DNA from: Acidobacteriota bacterium
Lineage (GTDB): Bacteria > Acidobacteriota > UBA6911 > JACQSX01
Assembly: GCA_016211105.1 (NCBI GenBank)
Contig: JACQSX010000038.1
Span: forward strand, 12,876 to 76,875
Direction of reading: 5' to 3'
DNA length: 64,000 nt
Of the stretch, positions 1 to 24,038 are shown one piece after another. How positions within the stretch are numbered: position 1 is the stretch's first letter; each line of letters begins with the position of its first letter. A program made the translations under genes and the position numbers. The notes under the pieces were generated by a model. The model had not been told where the DNA came from, did not search any database, and saw only the letters and a program-made list of their open reading frames with translations.

Positions 1-498
1 GTCAAACAACAGATTGCCGACAACCACACAGGCCTCCCCGATGCGGCCGCCGCCTGTGCCCGCGATCCGTTTTCCAGCCACTTCAATTTCGTTGGCATCC
101 CATAACTCGGCATTCAGTCCCAAGCGCCGCAGCGTCTTTGTCGGAGCGCCAAGCACGTTTTTGTAAATGTCTCGAGATACAACGGGCATGCGGGTATGAT
201 GGGCGATGCACTGATAGAAAATTTGGTTCACGTCCAAATAGGTGGCGCCACCGCCCAAGCGCCTGCGGAAAACGGCCAATCCCCGCCGCTCGCACTCTTG
301 CCGTTCCAGCGTCGCATCATAAGCCTGGTGATAGCCTAGACAGAGGTAAGGTTCCCGCGGCCGGCAAAGAAGGATGGTATCGGGAGAATCGATCCGCATC
401 GTGGCAGCAATTGCATGATAAAGAGCCTGCGTTCGCCATGATTCGGTCAACCCCAAATCCAACAACCGGATGACATTTCGGTTCGATCGCGGGCACAT
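1..498 (-). CDS. Lipoate-protein ligase / BPL_LplA_LipB-family protein, N-terminal part (runs off the left edge of the window)
   Basis: Absent from the ORF track because there is no stop inside the window. Manual translation of the minus strand from ATG 498-496 stays open to nt 1: MCPRSNRNVIRLLDLGLTESWRTQALYHAIAATMRIDSPDTILLCRPREPYLCLGYHQAYD...FRRRLGGGATYLDVNQIFYQ...IEVAGKRIAGTGGGRIGEACVVVGNLLFD. The RRxxGGGAxY and GKRIAG motifs are typical of LplA/LipB-fold enzymes. The ATG overlaps the TGA of the upstream radical SAM gene (TGATG). Confidence 0.7.
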   Translation of the reverse strand, partial: MCPRSNRNVIRLLDLGLTESWRTQALYHAIAATMRIDSPDTILLCRPREPYLCLGYHQAYDATLERQECERRGLAVFRRRLGGGATYLDVNQIFYQCIAHHTRMPVVSRDIYKNVLGAPTKTLRRLGLNAELWDANEIEVAGKRIAGTGGGRIGEACVVVGNLLFD

Positions 499-1610
499 CA
501 ATTCGCCATCGGAGTCAATTTTGACCAGACCTCATCCAACCGCATTTCTCTGCAAATCACGATCAGGTCGTCGCGCGCGGGCTGAAACGGATAATCTCGA
601 AATTCTTCGCCTGGCCGGTAAGAACCATAAGGTCGATTACAAGCCAACTTGCCCTGCCGATCGGGGCAGCCGTTGGTCATAAAGGGCAGGCCGCTTTCAA
701 CCGCCACGTCCACCATGATCTCAGGCGCATCCAATCGGGAGATGGCGCCTTGTTCGTCAAACTCCAAGTTTTCAAGAGACAGATTAGAATTCTCGATCAA
801 ATATTTGATCAACTGAATACGGCGAAGACGCTGGATGGACGCTCTCGGCGCGTCTTGCATTGTGGTCCCAGGCTCGGGATTAAACGAAAAAAGGTAGCCT
901 GCGATCTGTTCCGACTTAAGCTGGAAGAACAAGTCGACCAGCTCACCGTCGGTCTCTCCCAAGCCAACAATGATGTGGCAGTTCACCTTCATGGGGCCGT
1001 AGATCTGACGAGCCTGCCGGATTATCTCCCAGTGGTGATCCCACTGATGCGGGCCCCGAGCGCCCCGTCCGCGTGTCTGGTAGAACACGTGCTGAGAGGC
1101 TGCATCCAACCCAACACCGATGATGTCCACGCCCGCGTCCTTGATCGCGTGCAGTCGTTCTTGATCGAGTGTGGTCGCGCTCACCAAAGCGGAAATTGGC
1201 GCCGTTTCCGAGGCCCGCCGGATGCGACCGGTCATATCGATCAGGTCCTCATAGGCCCGAGGATCTTGTACCTGCGCGATACAGACCCGACCCACGCCCG
1301 CGGTCGCCTCCCTCTGGGCAATTTTCTCGGCCACCAAGTCGGTGGGGTAGAGCGGCCAAGCCACTCGAATAAACGTATTGTCCTCCGGTACCCCAGGCCG
1401 CTCCCGCGCCAAACCGCAGTAAGAACAATTGGCATAACAGCCCTCGGGATAATTCTGCAGCAAATTGATGCAACCGCAGCCACAATCGCGCAACAACCGG
1501 CCTGGCTTGAGGCGCAATTCAATCGCGGCAGCCATGCTGATGCGCACGTAATCCGGACTGATTTGAAATTGTTCACTCTGCTGATCCAGTGGAACAACGA
1601 CCCTGGCCAT
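498..1610 (-). CDS. Radical SAM protein, LipS1/LipS2-type lipoyl synthase candidate
   Basis: 370-aa ORF with the radical SAM CxxxCxxC motif 'CYANCSYC'. It lies between lipoate ligase genes inside an sHdr/LbpA cluster, which is the context described for LipS1/LipS2. S1 versus S2 cannot be decided by eye. Confidence 0.7.
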   Translation of the reverse strand: MARVVVPLDQQSEQFQISPDYVRISMAAAIELRLKPGRLLRDCGCGCINLLQNYPEGCYANCSYCGLARERPGVPEDNTFIRVAWPLYPTDLVAEKIAQREATAGVGRVCIAQVQDPRAYEDLIDMTGRIRRASETAPISALVSATTLDQERLHAIKDAGVDIIGVGLDAASQHVFYQTRGRGARGPHQWDHHWEIIRQARQIYGPMKVNCHIIVGLGETDGELVDLFFQLKSEQIAGYLFSFNPEPGTTMQDAPRASIQRLRRIQLIKYLIENSNLSLENLEFDEQGAISRLDAPEIMVDVAVESGLPFMTNGCPDRQGKLACNRPYGSYRPGEEFRDYPFQPARDDLIVICREMRLDEVWSKLTPMAN

Positions 1611-1634
1611 AACTTCCTCACGATTCCTTAAGCT

Positions 1635-2612
1635 CTACCAAGTGACACCGCAACAAGCATTGACAAAATGCGGCTCGAGGCTTTGCATACGGGCATACTC
1701 CACGATCCCCTCTGCCGGGTAAGCGATGCCATTGAAACCAACGTCAATCGCCAGTCGATCAATCGCCACTTTGAGATCGCCTAGAGGTCTTGCACAGCCC
1801 AGCATCACGGGTGTGGCCGGTAACTCCTTGCGCGTAAGCTGGAAAAAATCAGCGATCTGATCCATCCTGGGCGGCCGAGCCAATGCCATCGGCGTTCCCG
1901 TCAACGGCATCAGGACCACCAGCACCAAAAGCTTCGGTGGATGAGCGGCGATCATTTCCAGAGCTCCCCACTCTCCTAACATGCGCCCAAAGTGCAATCC
2001 CAGAATAATGTGAGGGACCGTGGGAACCTGGTAGCGTTCCAGCAGCGCGAGCGCGGCCTGGTATTCTTCCGGCGATGCGTCCAGATGGTAGACTTCGCGA
2101 ATCGTGTCTTGATGGCCGATGACATCCATCATCGCGCCATCAATGTCGATATCACCCAACGCGCGACAGGTTTCTGCATCCGGCAAGCCAGGATGAACCC
2201 GGATCTTCATCCCCAACTCCCGCCGTACTCGAATTAGGTCATGGATATGGTTGAGCAAAGGCACGCGTCCCCGTTTGTCGCTTCCCCCGGAAACGAGCAC
2301 GCCTCGAGCTCCTCGGTCCGCAAGCGCCGCGCATAATTCGAAGAGCGAACCGTCGAATTGCGGCAACGCCGTCATCCCCTTGAGCACCGCCATTTTGCAA
2401 TGTTCACAACTCAAGGCGCACGAGGCTCCGGTAAGACTGATCGAGACAAATTCCGCGGAATTTTGCCCGCTGTATTCTGAAGTCTTGTAACGCTTCAGTC
2501 CCGGCGCATGAAACACGATCTGATCCGGAAAATGAGCGCGCCGTATCTCGAAACATTTCGGATCGATCCTGAATGATGAGGGCGGCGTCCCATCGATGAA
2601 CGGATCAGCCAT
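1635..2612 (-). CDS. Radical SAM protein, LipS1/LipS2-type lipoyl synthase candidate
   Basis: 325-aa ORF with the radical SAM motif 'CALSCEHC'. Its ATG (2612-2610) overlaps the end of the upstream ligase gene by 8 nt. Confidence 0.7.
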   Translation of the reverse strand: MADPFIDGTPPSSFRIDPKCFEIRRAHFPDQIVFHAPGLKRYKTSEYSGQNSAEFVSISLTGASCALSCEHCKMAVLKGMTALPQFDGSLFELCAALADRGARGVLVSGGSDKRGRVPLLNHIHDLIRVRRELGMKIRVHPGLPDAETCRALGDIDIDGAMMDVIGHQDTIREVYHLDASPEEYQAALALLERYQVPTVPHIILGLHFGRMLGEWGALEMIAAHPPKLLVLVVLMPLTGTPMALARPPRMDQIADFFQLTRKELPATPVMLGCARPLGDLKVAIDRLAIDVGFNGIAYPAEGIVEYARMQSLEPHFVNACCGVTW

Positions 2613-3741
2613 GCGCGCTCTCCGGCACTACAAAACATCCGTAGGGCTCACCCGGCATTCCGCTCTTAACGAGGGCGGCGCTCTGTACCGCTAACTCAAT
2701 CGCCTCGGCAAGGCCCGCCAACGGGACCGCCTCCGATAGCCCTGGGTGCGCCGCGTAAATTTCCTGCAACGTCGCAACTACCTGCTCCGGCGCACTGGAG
2801 TGCCACCGCAAAGCGGCCTCCAGAGCGGCAATGCCGACCTCCGGCGCGAAGAAATCGCCCGCGATCAACACAGCTTTTAACCTCCGCCCCGCCAACGTCA
2901 CCTTCAGGTCTAAGAGACCGGCCGGTGTCTTCACCTTTGCGGCGCCTGCCGCGTCGTTCACGTCGGTTGTCTGAAACACCCAGTCACGCGCCAGATACTT
3001 GTCTCGTTCCATCTGCGCAATTGCCTGAGACTCCTCGGGTGTAAAATCACTCGCTTGAAGGCCAACGTTAAAGACGGCGCTGTAGCCAGCCGCTACTTCA
3101 CGACGAACTTCATCTAACGAAATCTCCTTGCCTAGCTCTCTGCGCACCGTCGTCGTTCGTGCCGCGACCCATGCAATCTCCTTATCCCGGATTTTCTCAA
3201 AAGGCGTGTTCAGCACCCGCAGCATCAAGGGCACGTCAAGATCGACCAACAGCGAAGCATGAAACAGCAGCCCTCCCGTTGGGACACGACAAACACCCAG
3301 TCCTGCGATCTTCCGCCCGGAGACTTCGATATCGTTCTTACGCCGGAACTCCGCCCCCAGGCCTAGATCGCGCAATGCTGCAACTAATCCAGCCGAGAAC
3401 TTCTTCATCCAAGCGCGGGCCCCACCGCAGGGGTCCCCGCTCCCATCGGGGACCGCCAGCGCCACTCCTAATTGGTCCTCTCCCATAAGAATCGCGCCAC
3501 CACCGGTCGGCCGACGGTTCATCGCAATCCCATGCTCCTGGCAGTAGTCCATGTGAATCTCATGTTCGACTCGCTGGAAACGCCCTACGAGAGCACAATG
3601 AGAACGGTAGGTGTAAAGGCGAAGGGTTGTCTGTGAGCCGCCGGTCCCGACTCTCCGGGCAAGCGCATCATCTACCGCCAAGCCCCAGGAGGCGGAGACA
3701 CCATCGTCCGTTACCAATCGCCAGCCAACGGAACCCTTCAT
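2605..3741 (-). CDS. lplA: Lipoate-protein ligase (LplA-like, sLpl(AB)-type candidate)
   Basis: 378 aa. 'NRRPTGGGAILMGEDQLGVALAV' and 'GRKIAGLGVCRV' match LplA catalytic motifs. A long C-terminal region is consistent with a fused accessory domain. Confidence 0.8.
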   Translation of the reverse strand: MKGSVGWRLVTDDGVSASWGLAVDDALARRVGTGGSQTTLRLYTYRSHCALVGRFQRVEHEIHMDYCQEHGIAMNRRPTGGGAILMGEDQLGVALAVPDGSGDPCGGARAWMKKFSAGLVAALRDLGLGAEFRRKNDIEVSGRKIAGLGVCRVPTGGLLFHASLLVDLDVPLMLRVLNTPFEKIRDKEIAWVAARTTTVRRELGKEISLDEVRREVAAGYSAVFNVGLQASDFTPEESQAIAQMERDKYLARDWVFQTTDVNDAAGAAKVKTPAGLLDLKVTLAGRRLKAVLIAGDFFAPEVGIAALEAALRWHSSAPEQVVATLQEIYAAHPGLSEAVPLAGLAEAIELAVQSAALVKSGMPGEPYGCFVVPESAHG

Positions 3742-3835: not shown

Positions 3836-4279
3836 CTATATCCAGCCCTGCGCCTGGTAGCGCTCAACCTCCGCCTTTACCCATCCCGGAATCGCGTCGC
3901 CTGCAATGAGTTCCGCCGACTCTTTCGGCCAGCTCGTAGGGTCGATCGAAGCGATCCAGCCTCCTTCATAGGGGTCGCGATTCACCAATGAGGGATCACG
4001 CAGCACCAGCTCATTTCGGCCAATCAGAATCCCGCTCACTGGAGCGATCAGATCACCTGTCATTTTGGCCGCCTCCAGAGTACCGACGGGTTCGCCGCGC
4101 CTGACTGGAGTCCCGACGGGTTGCAATGTGACGTATACCAGGTCGCCCAGCGCGCTTAGACCAAGCGCATCCAAACCCACAACGATTCGACCGGTGGCAG
4201 AATCAACCCGCGCCCAGAGATGGTTTACAGGATCGTAATAGCGATCATTTGGAATGTGGAAATTTCCGGAATCTGTCAT
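3836..4279 (-). CDS. lbpA: GcvH-like lipoate-binding protein LbpA
   Basis: 147 aa, GcvH-like throughout. The lipoyl-lysine context is 'GTLEAAKMTGDLIAPVSG'. It is adjacent to the lipoate ligase. Confidence 0.8.
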   Translation of the reverse strand: MTDSGNFHIPNDRYYDPVNHLWARVDSATGRIVVGLDALGLSALGDLVYVTLQPVGTPVRRGEPVGTLEAAKMTGDLIAPVSGILIGRNELVLRDPSLVNRDPYEGGWIASIDPTSWPKESAELIAGDAIPGWVKAEVERYQAQGWI

Positions 4280-4348: not shown

Positions 4349-5317
4349 TTAGCTTTTCACCCTCTCGGTCAACACAGGCACAATATCAAACAAGTCTCCT
4401 ACCACGCCATAATGGGCATAATCAAAAATGGGCGCGTTGGGATCCGAATTGATCGCGATAATAAGCTCGGCGTCCTTCATGCCCTCGATGTGCTCGGGCG
4501 CGCCGCTAATGCCGACTGCAAGATAAAGTTTCGGCTTGACCTTCACGCCCGACTTGCCCACCTGCCGGGTACGCGGGAGCCACTTGCTGTCGACAATGGG
4601 GCGCGAAGACGCCAGCGCCCCCCCCACAGCCTCCGCCAGGGCCTGCACGAGCGGTAGGTTATCAGCGCTCTGAATACCCCGGCCCACGCTCACAAGGACA
4701 TCTTGGGTGGTAATATCCACATCACCACCTTCCGGTTCGATGAGCTGTTTAAATCGAACCTTAGGACCGCCTAAAGGCGGCGTGGCAAAATCTTCGACCT
4801 GCGGCAATCCTCGGGTCGTGCGGCCTTTATCGGCCGGCGAAGCTCCGGCCAAGAGGCTGACCACCACACCGGCTCCCACAAACTGCGATTCCACGTAAAG
4901 CTTGCCGCCGTAAAGCTGGCTGGTAGCAAGCAACGAACCGTCTTCCCATTTCACATCGACTGCATACGCGACCAATGGCAGATTTGCTCCCACTGAGAGC
5001 GACGCCGCCAGATCCATTCCCATCGAGGAATTTGCCACCAGCGTAACCGCCGGCCTCTTGGTTTTAACAACCTCCACCAAGGCGGCACTGTAAGCTTCCG
5101 GATTAAAACTTTCCAGTTGGGGATGCTCAACGACGATCACCCGGTCGGCGGCGCCCAATTCCGCCCCCAGGTTTTTTACCCCATGGCCGAAAAGCAGGGC
5201 GATGAGATTTTCCCCCCTCGCGTCCGCCAATTCGCGGCCCTTGCCGAGCAGCTCGAAGGTTACCTCGACCAGCTTCCCTTTAAAATGCTCGGCCACCACG
5301 TAAACGTCTTGGCTCAT
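4349..5317 (-). CDS. etfA: Electron transfer flavoprotein alpha subunit
   Basis: The likely start is 'MSQDVYVVAEH' at ATG 5317; the ORF track start at 5374 is an upstream extension. The C-terminal FAD-binding signature is 'PKLYLAVGISGAPEHIEGM'. Confidence 0.85.
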   Translation of the reverse strand: MSQDVYVVAEHFKGKLVEVTFELLGKGRELADARGENLIALLFGHGVKNLGAELGAADRVIVVEHPQLESFNPEAYSAALVEVVKTKRPAVTLVANSSMGMDLAASLSVGANLPLVAYAVDVKWEDGSLLATSQLYGGKLYVESQFVGAGVVVSLLAGASPADKGRTTRGLPQVEDFATPPLGGPKVRFKQLIEPEGGDVDITTQDVLVSVGRGIQSADNLPLVQALAEAVGGALASSRPIVDSKWLPRTRQVGKSGVKVKPKLYLAVGISGAPEHIEGMKDAELIIAINSDPNAPIFDYAHYGVVGDLFDIVPVLTERVKS

Positions 5318-5399
5318 GCGTATATCCTTTTTAAAAAAGAGTGCTTGCTTCGAAAAGGTCGCGTCCCAAAACAACGATTCCCAGCTTTCGCACCCGCTG

Positions 5400-6167
5400 T
5401 CACTTCTTCAGTCCCTTCGCCTTCAGGAGATCAATAACCTTATCGGCAATTTCCTCCGGACTACCCTGGATCATTTGCGCCCGTGAGCCTTTTGGGGGTT
5501 TCATCATCCGCCGTACACTGGAACCCTCATCACCGGCGGCATTGTGGACCTCCACTTCCTCCAATGTCGCACTTTTCATTACTTGACGAACGCGGCTGAC
5601 GGCCACATAGCGCGGGATCTCACGCGCCGCCTGGATACCCAAAACCGCAGGCAGATCCACTTCAAACTCAGCCATGACACCGCCGGAGTACTCCTTCCTG
5701 ACAACTGCCTTGCCGCTTTCCACCCTGACCCCGGTCACGACACTCACTTGCGGCACACCCAAATAGCCGGCCAGAAGCGCGCCAAGCTGGCCATCCCGGT
5801 CGTCAACCGCCTGGACACCGGTTAGAATCAGGTCATAAGGAATTGCGGCAATGGCGCCGGCCATGGCTTTGGCCGCGGCGTGCATGGCAACGCCACCGGC
5901 AAAATCACCCATAAGTTTGATGCCTCGATCGGCGCCTTTTGCGATGGCGGTGAACAGCATTTTGTCCGTTTCCTCACCGTCAAGCGCCAGCACCGTTACC
6001 GCGCCGCCGATTTCAGCTTTCAATTGCAGCGCTTCTTCCAGCGCCTGATCGTCAAACTCGTTGATCTTGTATTTGACAGTGTCGCGACTCAGGTCGGTTC
6101 CTTCCTCGTTAAGCTCGAGTTCCTCAACCAGGTCGGGTACCTGCTTGATCGGGACTACAAAGTTCAT
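5400..6167 (-). CDS. etfB: Electron transfer flavoprotein beta subunit
   Basis: 255 aa. Features are 'MNFVVPIKQVPD', 'LILTGVQAVDDRDGQLG' and 'PRYV'. An AAGGAG Shine-Dalgarno (SD) sequence lies 6 nt upstream. Confidence 0.85.
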   Translation of the reverse strand: MNFVVPIKQVPDLVEELELNEEGTDLSRDTVKYKINEFDDQALEEALQLKAEIGGAVTVLALDGEETDKMLFTAIAKGADRGIKLMGDFAGGVAMHAAAKAMAGAIAAIPYDLILTGVQAVDDRDGQLGALLAGYLGVPQVSVVTGVRVESGKAVVRKEYSGGVMAEFEVDLPAVLGIQAAREIPRYVAVSRVRQVMKSATLEEVEVHNAAGDEGSSVRRMMKPPKGSRAQMIQGSPEEIADKVIDLLKAKGLKK

Positions 6168-7855: not shown

Positions 7856-9217
7856 TTATCCCCGCATGGATTCATCGATCAACTCGATAATGTCACGCAC
7901 GATTAATCTGCCTTCATTGCCGGTGGATTTCACCGCGTCCTCAAAGCGAGATACTTCATAGGGACAACAGATCGCGAGCACTTCAGCGCCCGTCTCCACC
8001 GCCTCGCGCACTCGCCGCTCCGAGAGCCGCTCGCTCACGTGATCGGCCATGAACGAATCCAACCACATCCCGCCGCCACCACCGCCGCAGCAGTACCCGT
8101 TTTCCTTGCAGCGCCACATTTCAGTGAACTGAACTCCGGGAATGCCGCGCAGTAATTTCCGCGGCGCCTCATACTCGCCGTTGTGGCGGCCGAGATAGCA
8201 TGGGTCGTGGAAAGTAACTTTATATCTGATCTCCTTTCTCAGCATCGGCTGAAGCTGAGAAAGGCGGGCGGCAAGAAACTGCGTATAGTGCTCCACGTCG
8301 AACCGGACGCCAAGCTTGGGGTACTCTTTACGAAAAGCATTAAGAGCATGAGGATCGGTGACAACAACTTTGTCAAACTTGTATTTTTTGAACATTTTGA
8401 TGTTGTGCGTCGCCAGTTCCTCAAATAGGCCCGGCTCCCCGGCCAGCCGCTGCGAGTCACCGTCACATTTCTCTTCCGTTCCGAGAATACCAAAATCCAC
8501 TCCCAGCGCCTGGAAAACGCGAGCCAGCGCGCGGGAAGCGTCGATACCCCGCTTCAGATAGCTGGGATAGTCGCTGACAAACCACAGCACCTGCACCGGC
8601 CGATTCAGTTGCGACATAATCGGTATCGGCACGTCGGAATTCTTTGCCCAGTCCGCCCGTTTGCGAGGGGACTCGCCCAGAGGATTCCCATACTGGGCGC
8701 AATTCTCGAACATCTTTTGCAGTTCCGGAGGAACGTAACCCTCCAGGACCGCCTGCTCCCGCACCGCCGGCATGATCTGAATCAAGTTTACTTCCTTCGG
8801 GCAGACCCGCAGGCAGTTCATGCAGGTGGTGCACTTCCACAGCTCCGGACTCTGAAGCAGATCCATGCCGGTCTGAACTTGGCGGAAAAGCTTGCGTGGC
8901 CCGTAGCTTCCCACTATGTCCACTGGGCAAACGGGAACGCACTGGCCGCATTGATAGCACCACCCAAACGACTCACCGCCCTCAAGACTGGTAATCTTAT
9001 CCATCAGGTCGGTGGGGTAATCCCAGATAACCCGCTGCTCAAACATGCGGTTCCAGTGTCCTGAAATGTCCATGCCATCCTGGACCACATGCTCTTTTTC
9101 TTTGATCCGCTCTGTGTCAACCGTGCGAAGAGAACCCATAAGTTCAACGCTCCATGCTTTGAATCGACGCATTCCGTGGCAGACCGGCGATACACCGCTT
9201 AGCCCATCGCCACTCAT
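7856..9217 (-). CDS. HdrD-like fused Fe-S protein (2x[4Fe-4S] ferredoxin domain + two CCG domains); sHdrB3-type candidate
   Basis: 'CYQCGQCVPVCP' and 'CTTCMNCLRVCP' are followed by CCG-domain motifs 'DPCYLGRH...YCCGGGGGGMW...ICCPYEV'. No hydrophobic TM stretch is visible. There is an ATGA start/stop overlap with the upstream gene. Confidence 0.75.
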   Translation of the reverse strand: MSGDGLSGVSPVCHGMRRFKAWSVELMGSLRTVDTERIKEKEHVVQDGMDISGHWNRMFEQRVIWDYPTDLMDKITSLEGGESFGWCYQCGQCVPVCPVDIVGSYGPRKLFRQVQTGMDLLQSPELWKCTTCMNCLRVCPKEVNLIQIMPAVREQAVLEGYVPPELQKMFENCAQYGNPLGESPRKRADWAKNSDVPIPIMSQLNRPVQVLWFVSDYPSYLKRGIDASRALARVFQALGVDFGILGTEEKCDGDSQRLAGEPGLFEELATHNIKMFKKYKFDKVVVTDPHALNAFRKEYPKLGVRFDVEHYTQFLAARLSQLQPMLRKEIRYKVTFHDPCYLGRHNGEYEAPRKLLRGIPGVQFTEMWRCKENGYCCGGGGGGMWLDSFMADHVSERLSERRVREAVETGAEVLAICCPYEVSRFEDAVKSTGNEGRLIVRDIIELIDESMRG

Positions 9218-9948: not shown

Positions 9949-10135
9949 GCAACTACTTCCCGTCACGCGCTAAACTGCCGTCTACGATTTCCAATACGAG
10001 CGCGTGGCTGGAGCACATCGGTTTTGAATTCCTGATTCTGACTTATGGATTGGAGCGCTCGTCTTACCCCGTGGATGACCGAGCCCCTCTCGCTCCAACG
10101 CCTTCCGGTATTGCCTGAGCCTGTAACCGCCCCCG

Positions 10136-15047: not shown

Positions 15048-15341
15048 TCATAGCTTGCGTTGCGAACCAAGATCTATGTCGCACGGCTTGCCCGGATCTG
15101 CCAGCACAAAAAGGTACTTTCTATGCCAACCCCAATCGTCGTTTTCCAGCATATAATCACGCAGCCGGTCCTTCTCGACATGATGTGCATGCAACCGGAA
15201 CTTCGCGGGTCGCTTTTCTTCTCCATCATCCACAACCTCCAAAAGCAGCCATTCTCCGGCCAGGCTTTGATACAATCGGGCCAGTTCCTGCAGGGAGATA
15301 TCTTTGCCGGTCCAATCATGCATTGCTTTCATCCATCCCAT
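15048..15341 (-). CDS. Hypothetical 97-aa protein
   Basis: ORF with an AAGGA SD, wedged between two DsrE-family genes. I recognise no motif ('...WLLLEVVDDGEEKRPAKFRLHAHHVEKDRLRDYMLENDDWGWHRKYLFVLADPGKPC...'). Confidence 0.5.
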   Translation of the reverse strand: MGWMKAMHDWTGKDISLQELARLYQSLAGEWLLLEVVDDGEEKRPAKFRLHAHHVEKDRLRDYMLENDDWGWHRKYLFVLADPGKPCDIDLGSQRKL

Positions 15342-15425: not shown

Positions 15426-15944
15426 CTAGATGAACAGGCTTACATCTGCGTCGGCCGCGTATTCAAGAAAGGTTGCGGCGCCCCCAATCTCGCACTGGGG
15501 GATAAAGTCGTCTCTCGCGAAACCGAAAACATCCATTGTCATCTGGCAGCCGATGAGGCGCACGTCCAATTCCACACAGGTGTCACGCAGTTGCTCCAGC
15601 GTCGCGACACCCTTCTTCTTGAAGGTCTGCTTCATTAGGCTTGTCGCCACAGAATCAAACCCAGGAAGGTTGGACATCAGCAGATTGGGAATCGGCCATT
15701 CTATTTTCTGGAAAGCTTCAGGCCCAAATGGCATCTTCATCGGCATCGCCGGATTGCCTACGGGGGACACGACCGCATCTAGCTTTTTCTTCAGAAGAAG
15801 CAAACCGTAGAAGGTGAAAAATATCGCCACTTCCCAATCCATTGCGGCTGCAGCGCTGGCCAAAATCAACGGCGGGTAACCCCAATCCAACGTGCCTTTG
15901 CTGGCAACCAGTGCCAGACGCCGTTTGCCGGTTTCTTTGGACAT
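15426..15944 (-). CDS. DsrE3-type (DsrE3A-like) sulfurtransferase
   Basis: Start taken at ATG 15944 (GAAGGAGAG SD). It has 'RRLALVASKGTLDWGYPPLILASAAAAMDWEV' and a Cys in 'RLIGCQMTMD'. Confidence 0.7.
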   Translation of the reverse strand: MSKETGKRRLALVASKGTLDWGYPPLILASAAAAMDWEVAIFFTFYGLLLLKKKLDAVVSPVGNPAMPMKMPFGPEAFQKIEWPIPNLLMSNLPGFDSVATSLMKQTFKKKGVATLEQLRDTCVELDVRLIGCQMTMDVFGFARDDFIPQCEIGGAATFLEYAADADVSLFI

Positions 15945-16058
15945 AAGATTCTCTCCTTCACCGCACCGCTTCAAAACGAAACTTGCAAGTTGCCGTCACA
16001 GAGGTCGGTACTAGGGACAAAGGTAGATGCTGACAGCAAGACTCGCGGTCGTCCCATT

Positions 16059-16301
16059 TCAGTGAGTTTTCTTAATTACAAAGTGGAACTTACCATCTTC
16101 CTGCTGATGGGCAACGAGTAATTCGTGCTGCGTCTGCCTAGCCCACGCTTCCATGTCCGGCATCGACCCAGGATCCGTAGCAATCATTTCCAGAACCTGT
16201 CCCACCTGCAGCTCTTTCAGGGCTTTGTTCGTCTTCACCACCGGCATGGGACAAAGCAGGCCGGTACAATCCAGAACCCTGTCTTGCTTGTATTCCGCCA
16301 T
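16059..16301 (-). CDS. tusA: TusA-family sulfur carrier
   Basis: 80 aa with the CPxP motif 'DCTGLLCPMPVVK'. Confidence 0.9.
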   Translation of the reverse strand: MAEYKQDRVLDCTGLLCPMPVVKTNKALKELQVGQVLEMIATDPGSMPDMEAWARQTQHELLVAHQQEDGKFHFVIKKTH

Positions 16302-16488: not shown

Positions 16489-17781
16489 TTATATCAATCC
16501 TCCAATTTCCTTGGCTGCCGGATAGAATTGAATGCTCGCTGTCTCGCGGAGCTTTTCTACGTGCTCTGCCATCTTTCTCGCGGCGATCTGCCGCGTCACG
16601 GATCTTCTTAGCTCATCGGCGCTCTTCAATTCCTTGGGGCTGATCGCCATGAGTTTAAAAATGCTGTATCCCTTGTCTCCCTTAATCGGCTTTGTGATTT
16701 CACCCGGCTTGATGTCGAGCAATGCTTTTTCCACGGACGTGTAAGGATGGTCCCCTATGATTACAGGATCGATTCTCCCGGAGTTAATCCTTGCATTCGG
16801 AGCGATCGAGCGGTCCATCGCCAAGCGATAGAAGTTTTCTCCCTTCAGAGCGCGCTCCCGAATGGAAGCAGCTTCCTTTTCAGCGCGGGCGACAATTAAG
16901 AGCACATCGGCCCGTTGCGGTTTGAAGCGGAGATATTCATTTTCCCTGACGAATGCTTCGATTTCGCCATTGTTGGGCCTATATTTCTTTTCCAGCTCCT
17001 TGCGGTGCACCACAATAGTCAGGTTTTTTCCATATTCGGCAGCGTCGCTGATGAATTTCTTATCCTGGTCCAATCCACCCTTTTTTGCCTCGGCGGCAAA
17101 AAGCTCCACTTCAACCGCCTGCGCCAGGAGATCCAGCAGGGCGCTCTTCGTATTACCCGAGTCAGCCAGGGCATCTTGCATGTCGCTGAAATAAATCTTG
17201 AAAGCCGCGGACGACACCAGCAGCTCGGCAGCTTTTAGTCCGGCGATTTCAGTCTTCGCCAGGATCGGATAATATTTGACCTGGTAGAAGTCAAACAGGC
17301 GCTCCTTTTCACGCGTCAGAACCTTCCGCCTTTCTTCATTCTGCAGCAGAGCCTTGGCCGCTTCTTCCGAAACGTGTTTCTCTCCGGAGTACCGGGCAAT
17401 TGCGTTGGTAGACCGTCGGATCTTCGCAAAGAGCCGCTGTCGATAGGCGTCTGCAAGCAACGATTTAGCGTAGCGATCTATCTCGTTTCGCAGATCCGTT
17501 CTGAGCTCGATTTTCGAGGCTATCGCCTCCTGGTAAAGCAGTTCCGAGTCGATAATTTCCCCCAATATCTGTAGGGTCGCCCTTTTCTGGTTGGAACTCG
17601 GCTGGATCTTGGCATCCGGCATAGCATACGGCGTGCTGTTCACTACCCTTCTGAGTTCCTCCATCGTAATGACTCGACCACCAACCTTGACGAGTGGAGT
17701 TTGAGCAGACGCGGGCAAACCAAAAAAGAGAATGACCAGCGTCGTTGTTAGAAGTTTCCCAAACACGTTTTCAATGCCCAT
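16489..17781 (-). CDS. SurA-like periplasmic peptidyl-prolyl isomerase (parvulin domain)
   Basis: The signal/anchor is 'LLTTTLVILFFGLPASAQ'. The C-terminal parvulin-like region is 'IKPGEITKPIKGDKGYSIFKLM'. The start is uncertain: ATG 17781 or GTG 17826. Confidence 0.65.
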   Translation of the reverse strand: MGIENVFGKLLTTTLVILFFGLPASAQTPLVKVGGRVITMEELRRVVNSTPYAMPDAKIQPSSNQKRATLQILGEIIDSELLYQEAIASKIELRTDLRNEIDRYAKSLLADAYRQRLFAKIRRSTNAIARYSGEKHVSEEAAKALLQNEERRKVLTREKERLFDFYQVKYYPILAKTEIAGLKAAELLVSSAAFKIYFSDMQDALADSGNTKSALLDLLAQAVEVELFAAEAKKGGLDQDKKFISDAAEYGKNLTIVVHRKELEKKYRPNNGEIEAFVRENEYLRFKPQRADVLLIVARAEKEAASIRERALKGENFYRLAMDRSIAPNARINSGRIDPVIIGDHPYTSVEKALLDIKPGEITKPIKGDKGYSIFKLMAISPKELKSADELRRSVTRQIAARKMAEHVEKLRETASIQFYPAAKEIGGLI

Positions 17782-17950
17782 CCCGATTTTTGACAGGTTC
17801 TCACGCTTGCCGTGCCCTGAGGACACTCAGGGTCACGTTTCACAATCGCGAAACTGGGTGCGCCCTGCCGGGCCGTAAATCAGGCGCCATAATAAAAAGA
17901 GGCCGGCAGACGTGCGGCCGGCCTCTGGCAATTTAACCTCCCGGATCGGA

Positions 17951-20613: not shown

Positions 20614-20631
20614 AAGAAATCCCCGACCTTA

Positions 20632-20901
20632 CTATTTCTGCTGAGCCACGGAGAATTTCTGGCTCGCCCGGATCATGGGTGTTACGCTGTCGCCGACTTG
20701 ATACGTCAACGACGCCTCGACTTGGATCTCGCTGGTACCTTGCGGCGCACTTAGTTTAAACGAATGCGTCGTCCGGCCCGGCTGAAGTGCGTTGTCGTCC
20801 CAGGAACGAATCAGCCAGTTGTCCACCGTCTTTTCGCCCTTCTTATCCTTCTGAGTGTAACCAACCATATTAAAGGTCTTGCTTTCGCCAAACACCTGCA
20901 C
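20632..20901 (-). CDS. C-terminal segment of the upstream multihaem cytochrome (same frame, beyond an in-frame TGA)
   Basis: This ORF is in the same reading frame as 20953-21849. Only a TGA (20955-20953) and 17 sense codons (PWGAKAVLDVTAKDAQG) separate the two. Confidence 0.6.
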   Translation of the reverse strand: MQVFGESKTFNMVGYTQKDKKGEKTVDNWLIRSWDDNALQPGRTTHSFKLSAPQGTSEIQVEASLTYQVGDSVTPMIRASQKFSVAQQK

Positions 20902-20952
20902 CCCTTGAGCATCTTTTGCGGTGACATCCAGTACCGCTTTGGCGCCCCACGG

Positions 20953-21849
20953 TCAAGTATCAGGAAGACGGTGACCTGCTTTATTGTTGATCGTGACTAT
21001 GAGTTCCGTGTCTCCACCCGCGCCAGCCTTCGTGGCCAAAGCAATCTCCGTCGCGCCTCGCAGCGCGGCCGCATCATGCCAGCCAGGAAATAGATGGCTG
21101 GAGACTTTCCTGGTCGGCACGCCGTCAATCTCGGCTGCCTTGCCGTCTTTCTTTTCCATATGACAACTCTGGCACTCTCTCATGTCGGCTTTAGCGGCTT
21201 TGGGCCCATACGGGCCGGCAGCCCAGGCGTCAAAAGTAAGCGAGCAAACGATATCCCAATCGGCGCTCACCTTCATATCCGCCGGGGTGACATACGTATG
21301 GCAGCTCTTGCAAAATTCCGACTTCTCCATTTGAGAGGCATACTGCGCGCCATGCCCTGGATTCACCGGGTTCTTGATGGTGCCGTAGTACACTTGTTTA
21401 TCGATCCCCTCCGGAGGCTTTACCTCGGGATGTCCGCTGGCGGAAAGCGCGTGGCAAGCTACGCAATCCACACTCAGGCCAGCCAGCGCTTCTCTCTGAT
21501 CGGTCTTGACCAACTGGGCCAGACGGGCAAAGTCTTCGTCGCTGGAGAAGCGCATCGCGGGCGCATGACAGCCGACGCAACCCATCAACTCATTGCGATT
21601 GAGCGCTCGACCCTTGGCCTGCTCTTGCGTGGTGATGTACCTCTTAAAACCCGCATGCATAGCCACCATGGTCTTGGCGTGGTAGGAGCGCTCCCATTCT
21701 TGGTAGTGACTCGAATGACACGCTTTGCAATCATTCGCAGTCACACCCAGTGGATTGGCAATTGTGGCTGTCTTCTCCTGCGCCAAAACCCCACTGAAAG
21801 ACAGCCAGGCTAGCGTCACAAGACAAGTGACTCGGTCGTATCGGATCAT
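20953..21849 (-). CDS. Pentahaem c-type cytochrome (cytochrome c554-like family), ends at an in-frame TGA
   Basis: Start taken at ATG 21849 (GAAGGAGGGG SD), giving the signal peptide 'MIRYDRVTCLVTLAWLSFSGVLAQ'. Five CxxCH motifs are present (CKACH, CVGCH, CVACH, CKSCH, CQSCH). It ends '...NKAGHRLPDT*'. Confidence 0.8.
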   Translation of the reverse strand: MIRYDRVTCLVTLAWLSFSGVLAQEKTATIANPLGVTANDCKACHSSHYQEWERSYHAKTMVAMHAGFKRYITTQEQAKGRALNRNELMGCVGCHAPAMRFSSDEDFARLAQLVKTDQREALAGLSVDCVACHALSASGHPEVKPPEGIDKQVYYGTIKNPVNPGHGAQYASQMEKSEFCKSCHTYVTPADMKVSADWDIVCSLTFDAWAAGPYGPKAAKADMRECQSCHMEKKDGKAAEIDGVPTRKVSSHLFPGWHDAAALRGATEIALATKAGAGGDTELIVTINNKAGHRLPDT

Positions 21850-22055
21850 GACCCCTCCTTCGTTTGGCCTAACGGCGTCCCCTACAAATACAACTGAACG
21901 GTCTGAAATAAAAGGAAAAAACGCAGATATACGTGAGCGCCGAGCATCAAACTTTCCGCTTAGCTCCCCTGCGCTCTTTTCGAACTCCGGACACTCGCCA
22001 GGAGCATTCGCCACCTATCTTACGGATCTCCAGAGTTACGCGCAGCGCCCTGCCT

Positions 22056-22874
22056 TCATTGTGGTATCCGCGCCATCAGCATAAACTGCTGCTGTACACT
22101 GTTGATGGCTTCAGCTCTTAAAGGTTCGTTTCCCAGGCGCGGAAGCAGAATGGCAATCTGCGGGTTATCACTGAGCCCGGGGCCGATTTCAAACTCGGCC
22201 ACTGGCTGCCCGCGATAGATCACACGCGCGCTCTTCAGAAAGAAGGGATCGTAGCTCTTAGCGATACGGCCATCCGCATTCATGACATATCCGGAAAGCA
22301 TCGGGTGGCGGAACAGCATATTGGCCTGCACTAGCTCGCCTATCTCCTGGAAACGAACTCGCAACACCTCACCCACTAACTTGCGTGTCGGCTCCTGTCC
22401 CGCACCGCAGCCCCCGACGCCCACCTCAATGGCGCTGGAAATGCCGAGCCACTTGCCATGCAAGGAGCACTCGGCGATCGCTTTCAACCGGGTGCTTTTC
22501 GCCATCTTAATTGCGACAGTTACTTGAGCCTGACGCACCGCAGGTGAAAAGGTTGCGACATACTTCAGCTTTACGACACTATTTTCGTCAAACAAAGCCA
22601 GTCGACGGATGTGATGTTTTTCGTCGCCCGCGAGCGGCACACTGACCGTGACCATCACCTCGTTGGCTGTCTCCACGACCCGCGGCGCTTTGATGCGCGG
22701 CGTATGCTGAGAATCCGAATTGCTCTGAACTTTCTCCAACAATGCCGCCAGACGCCGATTGGTGGCATCCAGGATATCGACATCCTGTGCCGGGGCTACC
22801 AGACCTCGGCTTAAGAGCAGAACTGACAAAATCCATATTCTCTTCATTATGATTAAAGACATATTTTGCTCCAC
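22056..22874 (-). CDS. soxYZ: Fused SoxY-SoxZ sulfur carrier protein
   Basis: The signal peptide is 'MKRIWILSVLLLSRGLVAPAQ'. The SoxY-like half ends 'AIEVGVGGCGAG' (Cys156, codon 22407-22409). The SoxZ-like half has 'MLFRHPMLSGYVMNADGRIAKSYDPFFLKSARVIYRGQPVAEFEIGPGLSDNPQIAILL'. The start could be GTG 22874, ATG 22862 or ATG 22847. Confidence 0.75.
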   Translation of the reverse strand: MEQNMSLIIMKRIWILSVLLLSRGLVAPAQDVDILDATNRRLAALLEKVQSNSDSQHTPRIKAPRVVETANEVMVTVSVPLAGDEKHHIRRLALFDENSVVKLKYVATFSPAVRQAQVTVAIKMAKSTRLKAIAECSLHGKWLGISSAIEVGVGGCGAGQEPTRKLVGEVLRVRFQEIGELVQANMLFRHPMLSGYVMNADGRIAKSYDPFFLKSARVIYRGQPVAEFEIGPGLSDNPQIAILLPRLGNEPLRAEAINSVQQQFMLMARIPQ

Positions 22875-24038
22875 TCAGCCTGCAATAAGCCAGCGGGATT
22901 TTTCGTTCCAGCGGGCCAACACATACCAACCTAGCAGCACGGCGATCGTGAGCGCCAATCCCAGCGGCCAACCTGTCATATCTGGCAGGAATACGGCGCT
23001 TCCCAGAAACTGGAGCAACTGTCGCTGCTCCAGAAAACCACGAAACGAAGAGCCGGCAATCGCAAAACCGGCGACCGCGCACCAGAGTTTGACGTGTCCC
23101 TCACCCGCCCGCCATATGGAGCCAGCGCCGCATCCGCCCGCCATCACCATTCCCACGCCGAAGATAACGCCGCCAAACAAACTTCCTTGCCAGAACGATG
23201 GGAAGACAAAGGCCTCTACTGAACGCAAGTCGGTGCTTTTCAGCACTGAAAACCCGAGGGCGCTCACCAGAAGGGATAACACTGCAGCTCGAGTCATTTC
23301 GCTATCGCCCGTCAGGAAAGGCTCTCGAAACGCACGCACCAAACAAAAACGCGAGCGCTGCAGCACAATCCCCAGAAGCAAGCCAAAAAGCAGTAGTCCG
23401 CCGCGTTGTTCAAAACCTTTCCTGGCGTACATCAATACGGTAAAGCCTACCAGCAGGAGGCAGACACCGCCCAGCCACGGCTGCAAGCTGGGACCGCCAT
23501 CCAAGGCGCCCCAAACATTCCGCGTTGGCCCGGCCAGAAGCCGCGGCAGGCGCTCGGTTTCCCACAACAAATAGCGCAATCCTAGATATGCGCCCACCGT
23601 CAGTCCCACCATCATCATCGGACCGGAAAGCGAAAGAGCAGAAAGCGCGCTGTAGAATCCACCGATATTGCAGCCCATCGCCAACATGGCGCCGACACCC
23701 ATGAATAGACCGCCGATCAACCCTTTTGCTAATTCTGCAGGCGGCGCAATCCGTATCGCAAACTGACGGCTCAGCAGGGAAGATGTCAACGCTCCAATAA
23801 GTAAACCAAAGTTCAACACCGAACCCGAATACAGCCACGGTGGAAGAATTTGGGACTGCGACTGCGCACCCAGCATCCGGAAAAACCAGTCGCCCCAATT
23901 TCGCAGGCCATCCGCGGCTGTCCAAGGCCTTTCGTACGCAAAAAGCAGAATATTCAAGGTCGCCAACAGGAATGCCGCAGACCACACCGACAGTGGGCGG
24001 CGAAAGATCGAATCAAATAGTTCTTTAACCACGCTCAT
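22875..24038 (-). CDS. yeeE: YeeE/YedE-family sulfur-compound (thiosulfate) permease
   Basis: 387 aa and polytopic. Conserved Cys-containing loops are 'AMGCNIGGFY' and 'MAGGCGAGSIW'. Confidence 0.8.
   Translation of the reverse strand: MSVVKELFDSIFRRPLSVWSAAFLLATLNILLFAYERPWTAADGLRNWGDWFFRMLGAQSQSQILPPWLYSGSVLNFGLLIGALTSSLLSRQFAIRIAPPAELAKGLIGGLFMGVGAMLAMGCNIGGFYSALSALSLSGPMMMVGLTVGAYLGLRYLLWETERLPRLLAGPTRNVWGALDGGPSLQPWLGGVCLLLVGFTVLMYARKGFEQRGGLLLFGLLLGIVLQRSRFCLVRAFREPFLTGDSEMTRAAVLSLLVSALGFSVLKSTDLRSVEAFVFPSFWQGSLFGGVIFGVGMVMAGGCGAGSIWRAGEGHVKLWCAVAGFAIAGSSFRGFLEQRQLLQFLGSAVFLPDMTGWPLGLALTIAVLLGWYVLARWNEKSRWLIAG

Follow-up and report, generated by a model that had tools for sequence, protein, structure and literature searches.

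A probable type II sHdr-LbpA sulfur-oxidation locus with an attached set of exported redox proteins in an Acidobacteriota bacterium

A 64,000-nucleotide stretch of DNA from the metagenome-assembled genome of an uncultured Acidobacteriota bacterium (assembly GCA_016211105.1, contig JACQSX010000038.1, positions 12,876 to 76,875 of the forward strand; referred to over its full length as the window) carries, at positions 1 to 24038, a cluster of genes resembling the heterodisulfide reductase-like (sHdr) systems of sulfur-oxidizing bacteria. We consider it probable that the cluster is a complete type II sHdr-LbpA locus for dissimilatory sulfur oxidation, to which exported proteins have been added whose most likely task is to take up reduced sulfur, and begin its processing, outside the cytoplasm. 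The core is an already-known kind of system, varied here by an embedded desulfurase, a displaced emo gene, and a linked YeeE-family transporter gene; the chief variants are an exported pair, comprising a predicted selenoenzyme and a hybrid carrier, and a member of an uncharacterized heptahaem family. Genes were assigned by Pfam and NCBIfam profile scans of the window proteins and by counts of CXXCH motifs, and the scans essentially upheld the gene order and identities given in a preliminary description of this DNA. The labels L001, L092, and so on denote public contigs or loci that were compared with the window.

The cytoplasmic core and its lipoate-assembly genes

A type II locus is recognized by shdrC1B1AHB3 and etfAB in one syntenic cluster, usually with emo after them (PMC11094781, PMC11582611). 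Here shdrC1, shdrB1, shdrA, shdrH, shdrB3, and etfBA are co-directional, with one extra gene, encoding a SufS-like protein, between shdrB3 and etfB; as far as gene content and order define the type, the cytoplasmic core is a canonical and complete type II sHdr locus. The preliminary description had recognized an sHdr-like pathway with a type II layout, in which an HdrD-like fusion and etfBA replace shdrC2 and shdrB2. Core genes and their order do match those of listed type II loci, and the fusion is sHdrB3, which is defined as a fusion of C2 and B2 (PMC11094781).

A scan of GTDB species genomes with sHdrB1, a protein with 2074 homologues below 1e-20, returned more than 590 loci, and the best 80 of these (65 to 83% identity in sHdrB1) were searched with all window proteins by tblastn to give a synteny matrix; gene order was listed for 14 of the 80. 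Homologues of HdrC1, B1, A, H, and B3, EtfB, EtfA, EMO, LbpA, TusA, and DsrE were each found in 63 to 80 of the 80 loci, with identities of 38 to 86% for HdrC1, B1, A, B3, EtfBA, and the EMO homologue, and the core order was retained in all 14 loci for which it was listed. The 80 loci include Sulfobacillus benefaciens, another Sulfobacillus, and Alicyclobacillus tolerans, from the group in which type II was defined; sHdrC1 is 70 to 86% identical across most type II loci, Sulfobacillus included, and sHdrB3, with a Fer4 dicluster at residues 87 to 142 and CCG stretches, recurs in the same place at 56 to 72% identity in 75 of the 80. Residues 5 to 346 of the 353 in sHdrA match the Hyphomicrobium denitrificans sHdrA structure 6tjr at 3.9e-87, compared with matches to methanogen HdrA of 1e-60 or worse that are confined to residues ~100 to 345, the C-terminal two thirds; at about 350 amino acids (aa) and without the ferredoxin and insertion domains of methanogen HdrA, the protein has the build of the short sHdrA flavoprotein. 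No Pfam or NCBIfam family matches sHdrH.

Type II clusters are invariably accompanied by TusA, DsrE3, and DsrE (PMC11094781), and here TusA, DsrE_2, and DsrE are encoded along with two LbpA proteins, whose lipoyl-lysine motifs are ESAK and EAAK. Assignment of the GcvH-like genes to a glycine-cleavage system was rejected, there being no gcvT or gcvP nearby and both genes lying among shdr and lipS genes. The 97-aa ORF (open reading frame) has homologues at 31 to 49% identity in 14 related type II loci, lying between lplA2 and dsrE where the order was listed.

It had been reported that neither LipT nor a membrane-bound Etf:quinone oxidoreductase was visible. For the oxidoreductase this does not hold, since emo is present just left of position 1. 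Public contig L001 overlaps window positions 1 to 6763 without mismatch and reaches 5.3 kb further left, where it completes the second LplA (335 aa) and then encodes a 388-aa radical S-adenosylmethionine (SAM) protein, a 696-aa EMO-like protein, a Rieske protein, and two small ORFs; the cluster, contrary to the earlier account, thus extends about 5.3 kb past position 1. The EMO-like gene (L001 8400 to 10490, 2 to 4 kb left of position 1) specifies an N-terminal membrane part like QmoC haem-b/NarI proteins, then a 4Fe-4S dicluster, and then a CCG region. Its homologues come right after etfA in Sulfobacillus (39% identity), KSB1 (67%), and 'Planctomycetota' (60 to 66%), the position after etfBA is shared by Alicyclobacillus and most other type II loci, and in one close shdrB1 relative the protein is split between a NarI-like and a CCG gene. 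The putative emo gene is not missing here but displaced behind the lipoylation genes. The absence of LipT stands, no candidate being seen in the window or in the 5.3 kb left of it, but it is not an unusual feature: only about 53% of bacteria with LipS1/S2 possess LipT (PMC10332631), and for that reason LipT is not obligatory.

The predicted LipS1 and LipS2 proteins give top NCBIfam matches to NF053742 (222 bits; cutoff, 230) and NF053743 (201 bits; cutoff, 270), respectively, and the sLpl(AB)-type ligase matches the LplAB and LplB models, both below their cutoffs; synteny with lbpA supports the assignment. The 388-aa radical-SAM protein (L001 7237 to 8403, 2 to 3 kb left of position 1 and after the second lplA) gives weak matches to SPASM/ranthipeptide-maturase-like proteins, and relatives at 58 to 74% identity are found in nine related shdr loci, adjoining lipS2 where the order was listed. 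Encoded directly after emo, the Rieske protein (L001 10498 to 11166; 222 aa) ends in a Rieske [2Fe-2S] ferredoxin domain, its N-terminal half being unassigned, and has weak homologues (37 to 50% identity) in 7 of the 80 related loci.

A pyridoxal phosphate (PLP) enzyme embedded in the core had been pointed out, and it proves to be a SufS-like protein encoded between shdrB3 and etfB. It matches Bacillus subtilis SufS (5xt5) at 2e-54, with the PLP lysine (SGHK), HH pair, and catalytic cysteine (CAHP) all conserved. An internal insert and a C-terminal extension are also present, and the scores are under the curated SufS cutoffs. Homologues at 68 to 75% identity occur in 7 of the 80 loci, all of them 'Planctomycetota' metagenome-assembled genomes (MAGs), and the position between shdrB3 and etfB is identical in the six of these with a listed order. 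Because it is absent from the other 73 loci, as it is from the two closest shdrB1 relatives, the gene is best described as an accessory of one sub-architecture. No cysteine desulfurase is mentioned in the papers on sHdr and LipS1/S2 that were consulted (PMC11094781, PMC10332631). The closest long-contig shdrB1 relative (L139, 20233 to 20445, minus strand) encodes a class-V aminotransferase of 490 aa about 2.4 kb downstream from emo, on the other strand. A loose association of desulfurase-like genes with type II clusters may therefore be commoner than one would expect from the embedded position.

Where the preliminary description gave about 25 co-directional genes, we count 26 co-directional ORFs in positions 1 to 24038, all on the minus strand and transcribed from 24038 toward 1. 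Each of the tight junctions that it quoted was verified: the stop of lipS2 overlaps the start of lplA2 in the TGATG at 498 (498 to 501; the L001 equivalents are genes 5154 to 6266 and 6266 to 7273), slplA and lipS1 share 8 nucleotides (2605 to 2612), shdrH and shdrB3 overlap in an ATGA (9214 to 9217), and two pairs abut (15047/15048 and 22874/22875). Such tightness is not general, however, gaps of 85 to 300 nucleotides separating some other genes. On the coding strand, the gaps ahead of the heptahaem gene and of tusA hold the two best sigma-70-like matches (20432 to 20404 and 16389 to 16361, respectively), the total of such matches being not above that in shuffled sequence; because of these gaps and promoter-like sites, the genes are likely to form several transcription units and not a single operon. 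ORFs 9963 to 10247 and 20362 to 20613, neither of which was scanned against the family libraries, were deemed spurious, one being an overlapping frame and the other lying in an intergenic gap.

The exported carrier and cytochromes

That a periplasmic module is physically joined to the cytoplasmic machinery was correctly noted, and all four proteins concerned carry signal or lipoprotein peptides; its Sox identity was not borne out. Only fused SoxY-like and SoxZ-like domains were found among the window ORFs scanned, SoxXA and SoxB being absent, and because of this absence the module, judged by its genes, is not a Sox module. The transporter encoded beside it conserves the three cysteines essential in Spirochaeta YeeE (6leo) as C232, C303, and C123, with its halves in swapped order relative to 6leo, and is colinear with NF033796 (YedE/FdhT), far below the cutoff. 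The YedE/FdhT model is selenium linked, which is worth recording beside a selenoprotein gene. Type II genomes are reported to lack SoxT-type YeeE transporters altogether (PMC11582611); in the DNA described here, as in L023 and L064, a gene of the YeeE family and a type II cluster are found in physical linkage.

The fusion of SoxY and SoxZ seen previously is real, but the protein is no ordinary SoxYZ and is better described as an atypical hybrid of a superoxide reductase (SOR)-like/SoxY domain with SoxZ. Against the PDB, the family profile is best matched by the 1Fe superoxide reductase 4brj (1e-13), followed by SoxY 4uwq_B (2e-10), and its C-terminal half matches SoxZ (2e-8). The carrier arm, VGVGGCGAG, aligns to the C-terminal VGGCG of 4uwq_B and is internal here owing to the SoxZ fusion; its cysteine is C156. 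Ligands of the SOR type are kept as H57 (HTP), H87 (HxI), and C136 with H139 (AECSLHG), and a profile-structure alignment finds no such residues in true SoxY. The SOR set of four histidines and a cysteine is incomplete in the window protein and its close relatives, in which the 'HPM' histidine is replaced (PLAGDEK); it is present in a distant SoxYZ-like clade that keeps all four histidines and the cysteine. This pattern suggests a metal site, with Fe or Cu, in a sulfur carrier. CopC-CopD-YtkA copper-handling fusions are encoded directly beside SoxYZ-like genes in two unrelated metagenome loci, L118 (10760 to 13201, minus strand) and L129 (5037 to 7232, minus strand), or three if L120 is counted, which hints that the His/Cys site may bind copper. 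Identification as a pyrroloquinoline quinone (PQQ)-dehydrogenase-associated carrier (TIGR04557) was rejected, with 78 bits against a cutoff of 140 and no PQQ dehydrogenase nearby, and is also disfavored by the company of SoxYZ-like relatives, which sit with SoxB, YeeE, TusA, and shdr genes.

This family is rare, with 8 clusters below 1e-30 and 102 below 1e-3 in a HMMER search of 1.84 billion representatives; a metagenome scan with the single SoxYZ sequence gave no matches, and an alignment-based rescan found relatives. The closest, at 61 to 67% identity, again follow a YeeE gene (L088, L089, L091). Among the others, those of L118/L120 are 3 kb away from a further type II shdr cluster, that of L116 immediately precedes lplA-lbpA-lipS1-lplA-lipS2, and those of L115, L129, and L133 keep company with YeeE, TusA, and SoxB. 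In the distant clade, which has 12 loci, the conserved order of encoded products is CarboxypepD_reg-like protein, metallophosphoesterase, SoxA/TsdA-like cytochrome, SoxYZ-like protein, MccSep-like cytochrome (with TGA), CcoN, and FixO/P, so that the adjacency of the SoxYZ-like and MccSep-like genes is conserved in a clade of about 30% identity. With a cbb3 oxidase next to it, as well as a metallophosphoesterase and a SoxA/TsdA-like cytochrome, the pair is there in an oxidative setting. The recurrence of this company across relatives argues for a sulfur function and for a partnership of carrier and selenoenzyme in an electron-donating setting. The distant-clade operon (L092, 7395 to 14994; also L093 to L098, L106, L109, L110, and L121), in which the metallophosphoesterase has 379 aa and the SoxA/TsdA-like protein 152 aa, itself has the look of a minimal system for periplasmic sulfur oxidation, not described before, that is connected to a cbb3 oxidase.

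The adjoining gene had been read as a five-haem cytochrome ending at position 20953. The five haem motifs are there, but the end is not: the frame continues through the TGA at 20953 to 20955 for 106 more codons, to 20632. Profile and alignment place the product as a distant member or sister clade of the MccSep/ExtKL selenoprotein family. Model NF040886 (ExtKL multiheme c-type cytochrome (seleno)protein) matches the truncated ORF at 95 bits over model positions 45 to 313, and with the TGA read as Cys the match is 158.6 bits over positions 45 to 406 of 423. In a phmmer alignment with the MccSep structures 9wt8 and 9wt9 (E value, 2e-12; 50 bits; gapped over about 330 residues), all five CXXCH motifs are in register, MccSep C239, the distal ligand of haem 2, faces the cysteine of DIVCSLTF in the window protein, and the TGA falls exactly at the selenocysteine (Sec) position, AGHRLPDT-U-PWG facing AGHSIPDG-U-PTP, the latter a verified Geobacter peptide (PMC13510729). 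The reference protein, ExtKL (GSU2937/2936) of Geobacter sulfurreducens, was characterized in 2026 as MccSep, a periplasmic homotetrameric pentahaem enzyme that reduces polysulfide by means of Sec325 and of haem 2, the latter with His/Cys ligation, and is essential for elemental sulfur (S0) respiration in Geobacter; the authors of that study note that SoxAX/TsdA catalysis may be this chemistry run backward (Mihara et al. 2026, PMC13510729).

A hairpin of 7 bp with a UGGAU loop lies 15 nucleotides downstream of the TGA, and the same TGA and a near-identical hairpin occur at the same offset in seven loci of the clade of about 30% identity; this conservation across clades points to a conserved element resembling a selenocysteine insertion sequence (SECIS). 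Rfam holds no RNA family that matches window positions 1 to 25000 and hence gives no curated SECIS support. The corresponding TGA of L092 is at 11550 to 11552, and the hairpin consensus across clades is GCGGUxC-UGGAx-GUxACCGy.

The second cytochrome was correctly said to carry seven CXXCH motifs; it belongs to an uncharacterized family, here termed Cyt793, that has its own peptidyl-prolyl isomerase (PPIase). There are more than 1100 homologues at 60 to 78% identity, every source-named one of which is annotated as hypothetical, from Nitrospinae and Nitrospirae MAGs, Gallionellaceae, Chromatiales, Sedimenticola, Methylomarinovum, and Methylohalobius, and we found no study of the family in the literature. 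Invariant non-haem residues are H63-C64, C72-C73, and C478. A SurA-like PPIase gene follows the Cyt793 homologue in all of seven independent contexts (L082, L083, L084, L086, L136, L137, L138); TusA and DsrE_2 are beside the pair in three of these (two Nitrospinae MAGs and Sedimenticola, the last also with rhodanese and redoxin). Three of the contexts include a quinone-linked module, which is NrfC/NrfD in both Nitrospinae MAGs and a tetrahaem protein of the NapC/NirT kind in Gallionellaceae, and two include a putative sulfite exporter, TauE. Sigma-54 two-component regulators are also among the neighbors. On this gene order, the Cyt793-PPIase-TusA-DsrE3 junction is a recurrent unit, and by analogy we infer that Cyt793 is a periplasmic sulfur oxidoreductase. 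A PPIase partner also occurs in the operons of the octahaem sulfite reductase MccA/Sir, which encode a multihaem cytochrome, a PPIase, NrfC, and NrfD. Homology of Cyt793 to MccA was rejected, since neither sequence nor profile comparison with the PDB, MccA included, gave a match, and only the analogy in operon design was kept.

A proposed sulfur route and its alternatives

We suggest that the MccSep-like cytochrome would make or break S-S bonds between sulfur derived from polysulfide or sulfide and the cysteine arm of the carrier, and that, working in the oxidative direction, it would take over the function of SoxXA; both this direction and the partner are suggested by the conserved adjacency of the two genes. 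The YeeE-type channel would import sulfane sulfur or, alternatively, thiosulfate, either being a presumed substrate. Within the cell, sulfur would pass from TusA to DsrE3 and DsrE and then to lipoylated LbpA and sHdrC1B1A(H)B3, to be oxidized to sulfite, as is known for type I and presumed for type II, and electrons would leave through EtfBA and the membrane protein EMO to menaquinone, following the model in the literature. Both LbpA proteins would be lipoylated by sLplA, LipS1, and LipS2 together with the second ligase and the extra radical-SAM protein, and the SufS-like enzyme may supply persulfide sulfur for lipoyl or Fe-S cofactors or for the relay. Cyt793, matured by its own PPIase, may be a second periplasmic sulfur oxidoreductase, sulfite being a guess at its substrate that draws on the MccA/Sir operons, and the ArsR protein may be a sulfane-sulfur-responsive repressor, by analogy with sHdrR. 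A bolder version, which we hold to be conceivable though doubtful, is that the exported genes form an undescribed Sox-independent front end, in which the MccSep-like enzyme loads the hybrid carrier oxidatively and sulfur passes through YeeE to TusA, while Cyt793 and its PPIase constitute a new periplasmic sulfur-oxoanion oxidoreductase; Cyt793 could then be the missing sulfite oxidase of such organisms.

Several observations weigh against the proposed sulfur-oxidizing role. The read-through score of the pentahaem protein (158.6 bits) is under the curated NF040886 cutoff of 250; MccSep R83 and K372 face Ala and Asn in the phmmer alignment, in stretches that are poorly aligned; and the z-score of the SECIS-like fold is indistinguishable from those of shuffles. 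No Sec-insertion genes, sulfite-oxidizing enzyme, or electron acceptor for the cytochromes was seen in the window, and the AlphaFold2 model of Cyt793, from a 33-sequence alignment, has a predicted local distance difference test score (pLDDT) of 45 and is unusable. The function of type II systems is itself without direct experimental proof (PMC11094781). None of the 80 GTDB loci, the flanks of which reach about 10 kb upstream of shdrB1 where the contig allows, encodes a homologue of the SoxYZ-like, MccSep-like, Cyt793, or PPIase proteins, and the long contigs of the two closest shdrB1 relatives have none either; across about 85 related shdr loci, no case of the attached module was seen. The physical union is specific to this lineage among the loci examined, and because of these absences the coupling is not a conserved sHdr feature; the intergenic gaps and promoter-like sites, too, point to separate transcription units.

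These last points bear most directly on the view that adjacency is incidental, YeeE-SoxYZ-like-MccSep-like and Cyt793-PPIase being independent units beside a standard type II cluster, with roles such as detoxification of selenium or tellurium oxyanions or of polysulfide, or extracellular electron transfer. Gaps of 124 to 300 nucleotides with the best promoter-like sites precede Cyt793 and tusA, MccSep also reduces selenite (PMC13510729), the best model for the transporter is the selenium-linked YedE/FdhT, and a Sox(YZ) fusion beside the YeeE-like PmpAB in Hyphomicrobium was judged not to be sulfur related (PMC11582611). We nevertheless regard this explanation as quite unlikely. SoxYZ-like relatives independently adjoin type II shdr, lbpA-lipS, and TusA-YeeE genes (L118/L120, L116, and L133, respectively), the Cyt793-PPIase pair adjoins TusA-DsrE_2 in three other lineages, so that the junction with tusA is recurrent, and there is no PQQ dehydrogenase in the vicinity; because the carrier family keeps the company of shdr, lbpA, YeeE, and TusA genes elsewhere, and Cyt793 that of TusA and DsrE3, a functional link between the periplasmic module and sHdr is plausible, but not proven. 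Least probable of all, and very improbable in our view, is a nondissimilatory role for the Hdr-like/LbpA/SufS/Etf set in lipoate and Fe-S assembly or in the reduction of protein or low-molecular-weight disulfides with Etf as the donor. The desulfurase, two ligases, and three radical-SAM proteins lend the cluster a biosynthetic flavor, which the missing experimental proof for type II leaves room for, but gene content and order match the type II clusters of established sulfur oxidizers such as Sulfobacillus, in constant association with TusA, DsrE3, and DsrE, and the SufS-like gene is an accessory by its distribution.

A different direction of flow is envisaged if the organism disproportionates S0 or polysulfide or respires sulfur, the MccSep-like protein reducing polysulfide to sulfide in the periplasm, as in Geobacter, with electrons passed from the quinone pool to the periplasmic cytochromes while YeeE-TusA-DsrE and sHdr oxidize another share of sulfur to sulfite. 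The sole characterized MccSep is indeed a reductase of sulfur respiration (PMC13510729), clusters of YedE, TusA, and DsrE ('YTD'), the foremost marker of sulfur disproportionation, have been reported in Acidobacteriota (PMC12998232), and relatives of Cyt793 adjoin quinol dehydrogenases of the NrfCD or NapC type. The window cluster, on the other hand, contains no NrfCD or NapC/CymA quinol dehydrogenase, the distant-clade SoxYZ-like/MccSep-like pair lies in a cbb3 oxidase operon, which indicates electron donation to O2, sHdr/EtfBA/EMO is modeled as feeding menaquinone, and the residues that assist substrate turnover in Geobacter MccSep appear to have no like counterparts; we judge this alternative unlikely and continue to favor oxidative capture of sulfur by the exported proteins.

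Genomic setting and comparison with known systems

The positions of the features are collected in Table 1. An Acidobacteria-like host had been suggested from the flanking genes and is borne out by a flanking CarboxypepD_reg/OMP_b-brl_4 receptor, all named relatives of which are from Acidobacteria, namely, proteins of Acidobacteria MAGs (top identity, 75%), Terriglobia, and Pyrinomonadaceae. No window protein has a relative at 90% identity or above in a collection of 15 billion proteins, and no Acidobacteria are among the 80 best shdrB1 loci. The cluster is a mosaic: SufS-like, LipS1/S2, radical-SAM, and EMO proteins are closest to those of 'Planctomycetota' MAGs and one KSB1 MAG, and the DsrE3 and 97-aa genes are common to KSB1, Calditrichota, and Bacteroidota but not to those Planctomycetota. 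Beyond the cluster, positions 30459 to 45906 hold three amidohydrolase genes beside three tandem or divergent paralogous CarboxypepD_reg/OMP_b-brl_4 receptor genes, and a fourth OMP_b-brl_4 receptor, without a CarboxypepD_reg match, is encoded at 61265 to 63979; paralogues of the queried receptor are 70 to 78% identical, and the amidohydrolase/receptor set is typical of Acidobacteria. A 1399-aa RHS/YD-repeat protein (55275 to 59474, plus strand), probably a polymorphic toxin, is unrelated to the sulfur cluster.

Table 1. Features of the sulfur cluster in window coordinates
Feature	Positions	Strand	Support
YeeE/YedE-family membrane sulfur transporter, 387 aa	22875..24038	-	PF04143, 8e-53
Exported fused SoxY-SoxZ-like carrier, 272 aa	22056..22874	-	Pfam SoxY, Desulfoferrodox, SoxZ
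MccSep/ExtKL-like pentahaem selenocysteine cytochrome (predicted), ~405 aa including signal peptide	20632..21849	-	NF040886, five CXXCH
In-frame TGA, predicted selenocysteine codon	20953..20955	-	AGHRLPDT-TGA-PWG motif
SECIS-like hairpin GCGGUAC-UGGAU-GUCACCGC	20918..20937	-	Predicted fold, 15 nt past TGA
Heptahaem lipoprotein Cyt793, 793 aa	17951..20332	-	Seven CXXCH and lipobox
SurA-like PPIase	16489..17826	-	Pfam Rotamase/SurA_N
TusA sulfur carrier	16059..16301	-	PF01206, 9e-26; in 67/80 related shdr loci
DsrE3-type sulfurtransferase (DsrE_2)	15426..15974	-	PF13686, 5.5e-47; in 47/80 loci
97-aa conserved protein without family	15048..15341	-	No Pfam/NCBIfam match
DsrE-family sulfurtransferase	14646..15047	-	PF02635, 1.4e-21; in 73/80 loci
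LbpA1, GcvH-like lipoate-binding protein	13931..14401	-	PF01597, 1.5e-36; lipoyl-Lys motif ESAK
ArsR-type regulator, sHdrR-like	13358..13765	-	HTH_5, 2e-12; in 32/80 loci
sHdrC1	12562..13266	-	Fer4 dicluster
sHdrB1	11295..12539	-	CCG domain
sHdrA, 353 aa	10136..11197	-	Best PDB match 6tjr
sHdrH, 250 aa, hypothetical protein of shdr clusters	9214..9966	-	Position conserved in 72/80 loci
sHdrB3, HdrC2-HdrB2 fusion	7856..9217	-	Fer4 and 2 CCG stretches
SufS-type (group II) cysteine desulfurase-like PLP enzyme, 502 aa	6278..7786	-	Aminotran_5, 3e-79
EtfB	5400..6167	-	PF01012
EtfA	4349..5374	-	PF01012 and PF00766
LbpA2	3836..4279	-	PF01597, 8e-26; lipoyl-Lys motif EAAK
sLpl(AB)-type lipoate-protein ligase	2605..3741	-	LplA-B_cat, 9e-40
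LipS1 lipoyl synthase (predicted)	1635..2612	-	NF053742, 1e-65
LipS2 lipoyl synthase (predicted)	498..1610	-	NF053743, 2e-59
Second LplA-like ligase, cut by window edge	1..501	-	LplA-B_cat; 335 aa complete in L001

Type II sHdr systems are widespread, with more than 590 GTDB species loci in our single scan and reports from 12 phyla in the sHdr literature. The locus offers a concrete candidate route for delivering sulfur to them, comprising carrier, selenoenzyme, and YeeE channel, and the exported genes, if the proposal is true, may represent a new way of feeding sulfur into the sHdr pathway. The MccSep family would then be placed in a sulfur-oxidizing, apparently aerobic context, with a role broader than sulfur respiration. 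Attention is also drawn to a large conserved multihaem family, distributed over Nitrospinae, Gallionellaceae, Chromatiales, and methanotrophs and often encoded near TusA/DsrE3, and Acidobacteria are added to the candidate sHdr-type sulfur oxidizers of groundwater.

Among known systems, Geobacter MccSep shares with the pentahaem protein an N-terminal haem domain with five CXXCH motifs, a C-terminal Ig-like part, a signal peptide, the AGHxxPDxU-P Sec motif at an in-frame TGA, and the aligned distal cysteine of haem 2. It differs in that the PDB match is weak, the NCBIfam score is below the cutoff, and R83 and K372 are not aligned to like residues; the Geobacter gene lies next to ExtHIJ, whereas the one described here adjoins a SoxYZ-like carrier and sulfur-oxidation genes, and its product probably works in the oxidative direction. 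The N-domain of the carrier aligns both to SoxYZ (2ox5, 4uwq) and to the iron domain of SOR/desulfoferrodoxin (4brj) and ends in the GGC swinging-arm motif of SoxY, and the C-domain is SoxZ-like; unlike SoxYZ, Y and Z are fused, leaving the arm cysteine internal, and unlike true SoxY, the protein retains the SOR-type ligands HTP, HxI, and CxxH, with one of the four SOR histidines lost. Cyt793 recalls MccACD/SirABCD (MccACD sulfite reductase operon, PMC8076601) in that a multihaem cytochrome gene is followed by that of a dedicated PPIase, with NrfC/NrfD-type modules in its Nitrospinae relatives; it shows no detectable sequence similarity to MccA, from which it also differs in having seven haem motifs where MccA has eight, in lacking CX15CH, and in its lipoprotein anchor and conserved cysteine cluster (C64, C72, C73, C478).

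The type I system of Hyphomicrobium denitrificans (shdrC1B1AHC2B2, LbpA2, sLpl(AB)-LipS1-LipT-LipS2, SoxT1A, SoxXAB-YZ, and sHdrR) provides the parallel for loading of a SoxY cysteine in the periplasm, YeeE-type import, the TusA/DsrE relay, LbpA-dependent oxidation to sulfite, and an ArsR-type repressor, and its sHdrA (6tjr) is a close structural-sequence match to the protein described here. Unlike type I, the locus has sHdrB3 and EtfBA/EMO in place of sHdrC2B2, lacks LipT, SoxXA, and SoxB, and encodes a fused, SOR-like SoxYZ as its carrier. The closest likeness is to the type II loci of Sulfobacillus, Chloroflexota, and Actinomycetota (Tanabe et al. 2024, PMC11094781), with which it shares all core genes, the order shdrC1B1AH-B3-etfBA, TusA, DsrE3-type, and DsrE proteins, two LbpA proteins, lipoate-assembly genes, and an EMO, here just beyond the window, HdrA, B1, C1, and B3 being 58 to 72% identical to the Sulfobacillus/Alicyclobacillus proteins. 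It departs from them in the SufS-type desulfurase inserted between shdrB3 and etfB, in the displacement of emo behind the lipoylation genes, in the attachment of a YeeE-family transporter and a periplasmic cytochrome/carrier module, and in its host phylum, the Acidobacteriota.

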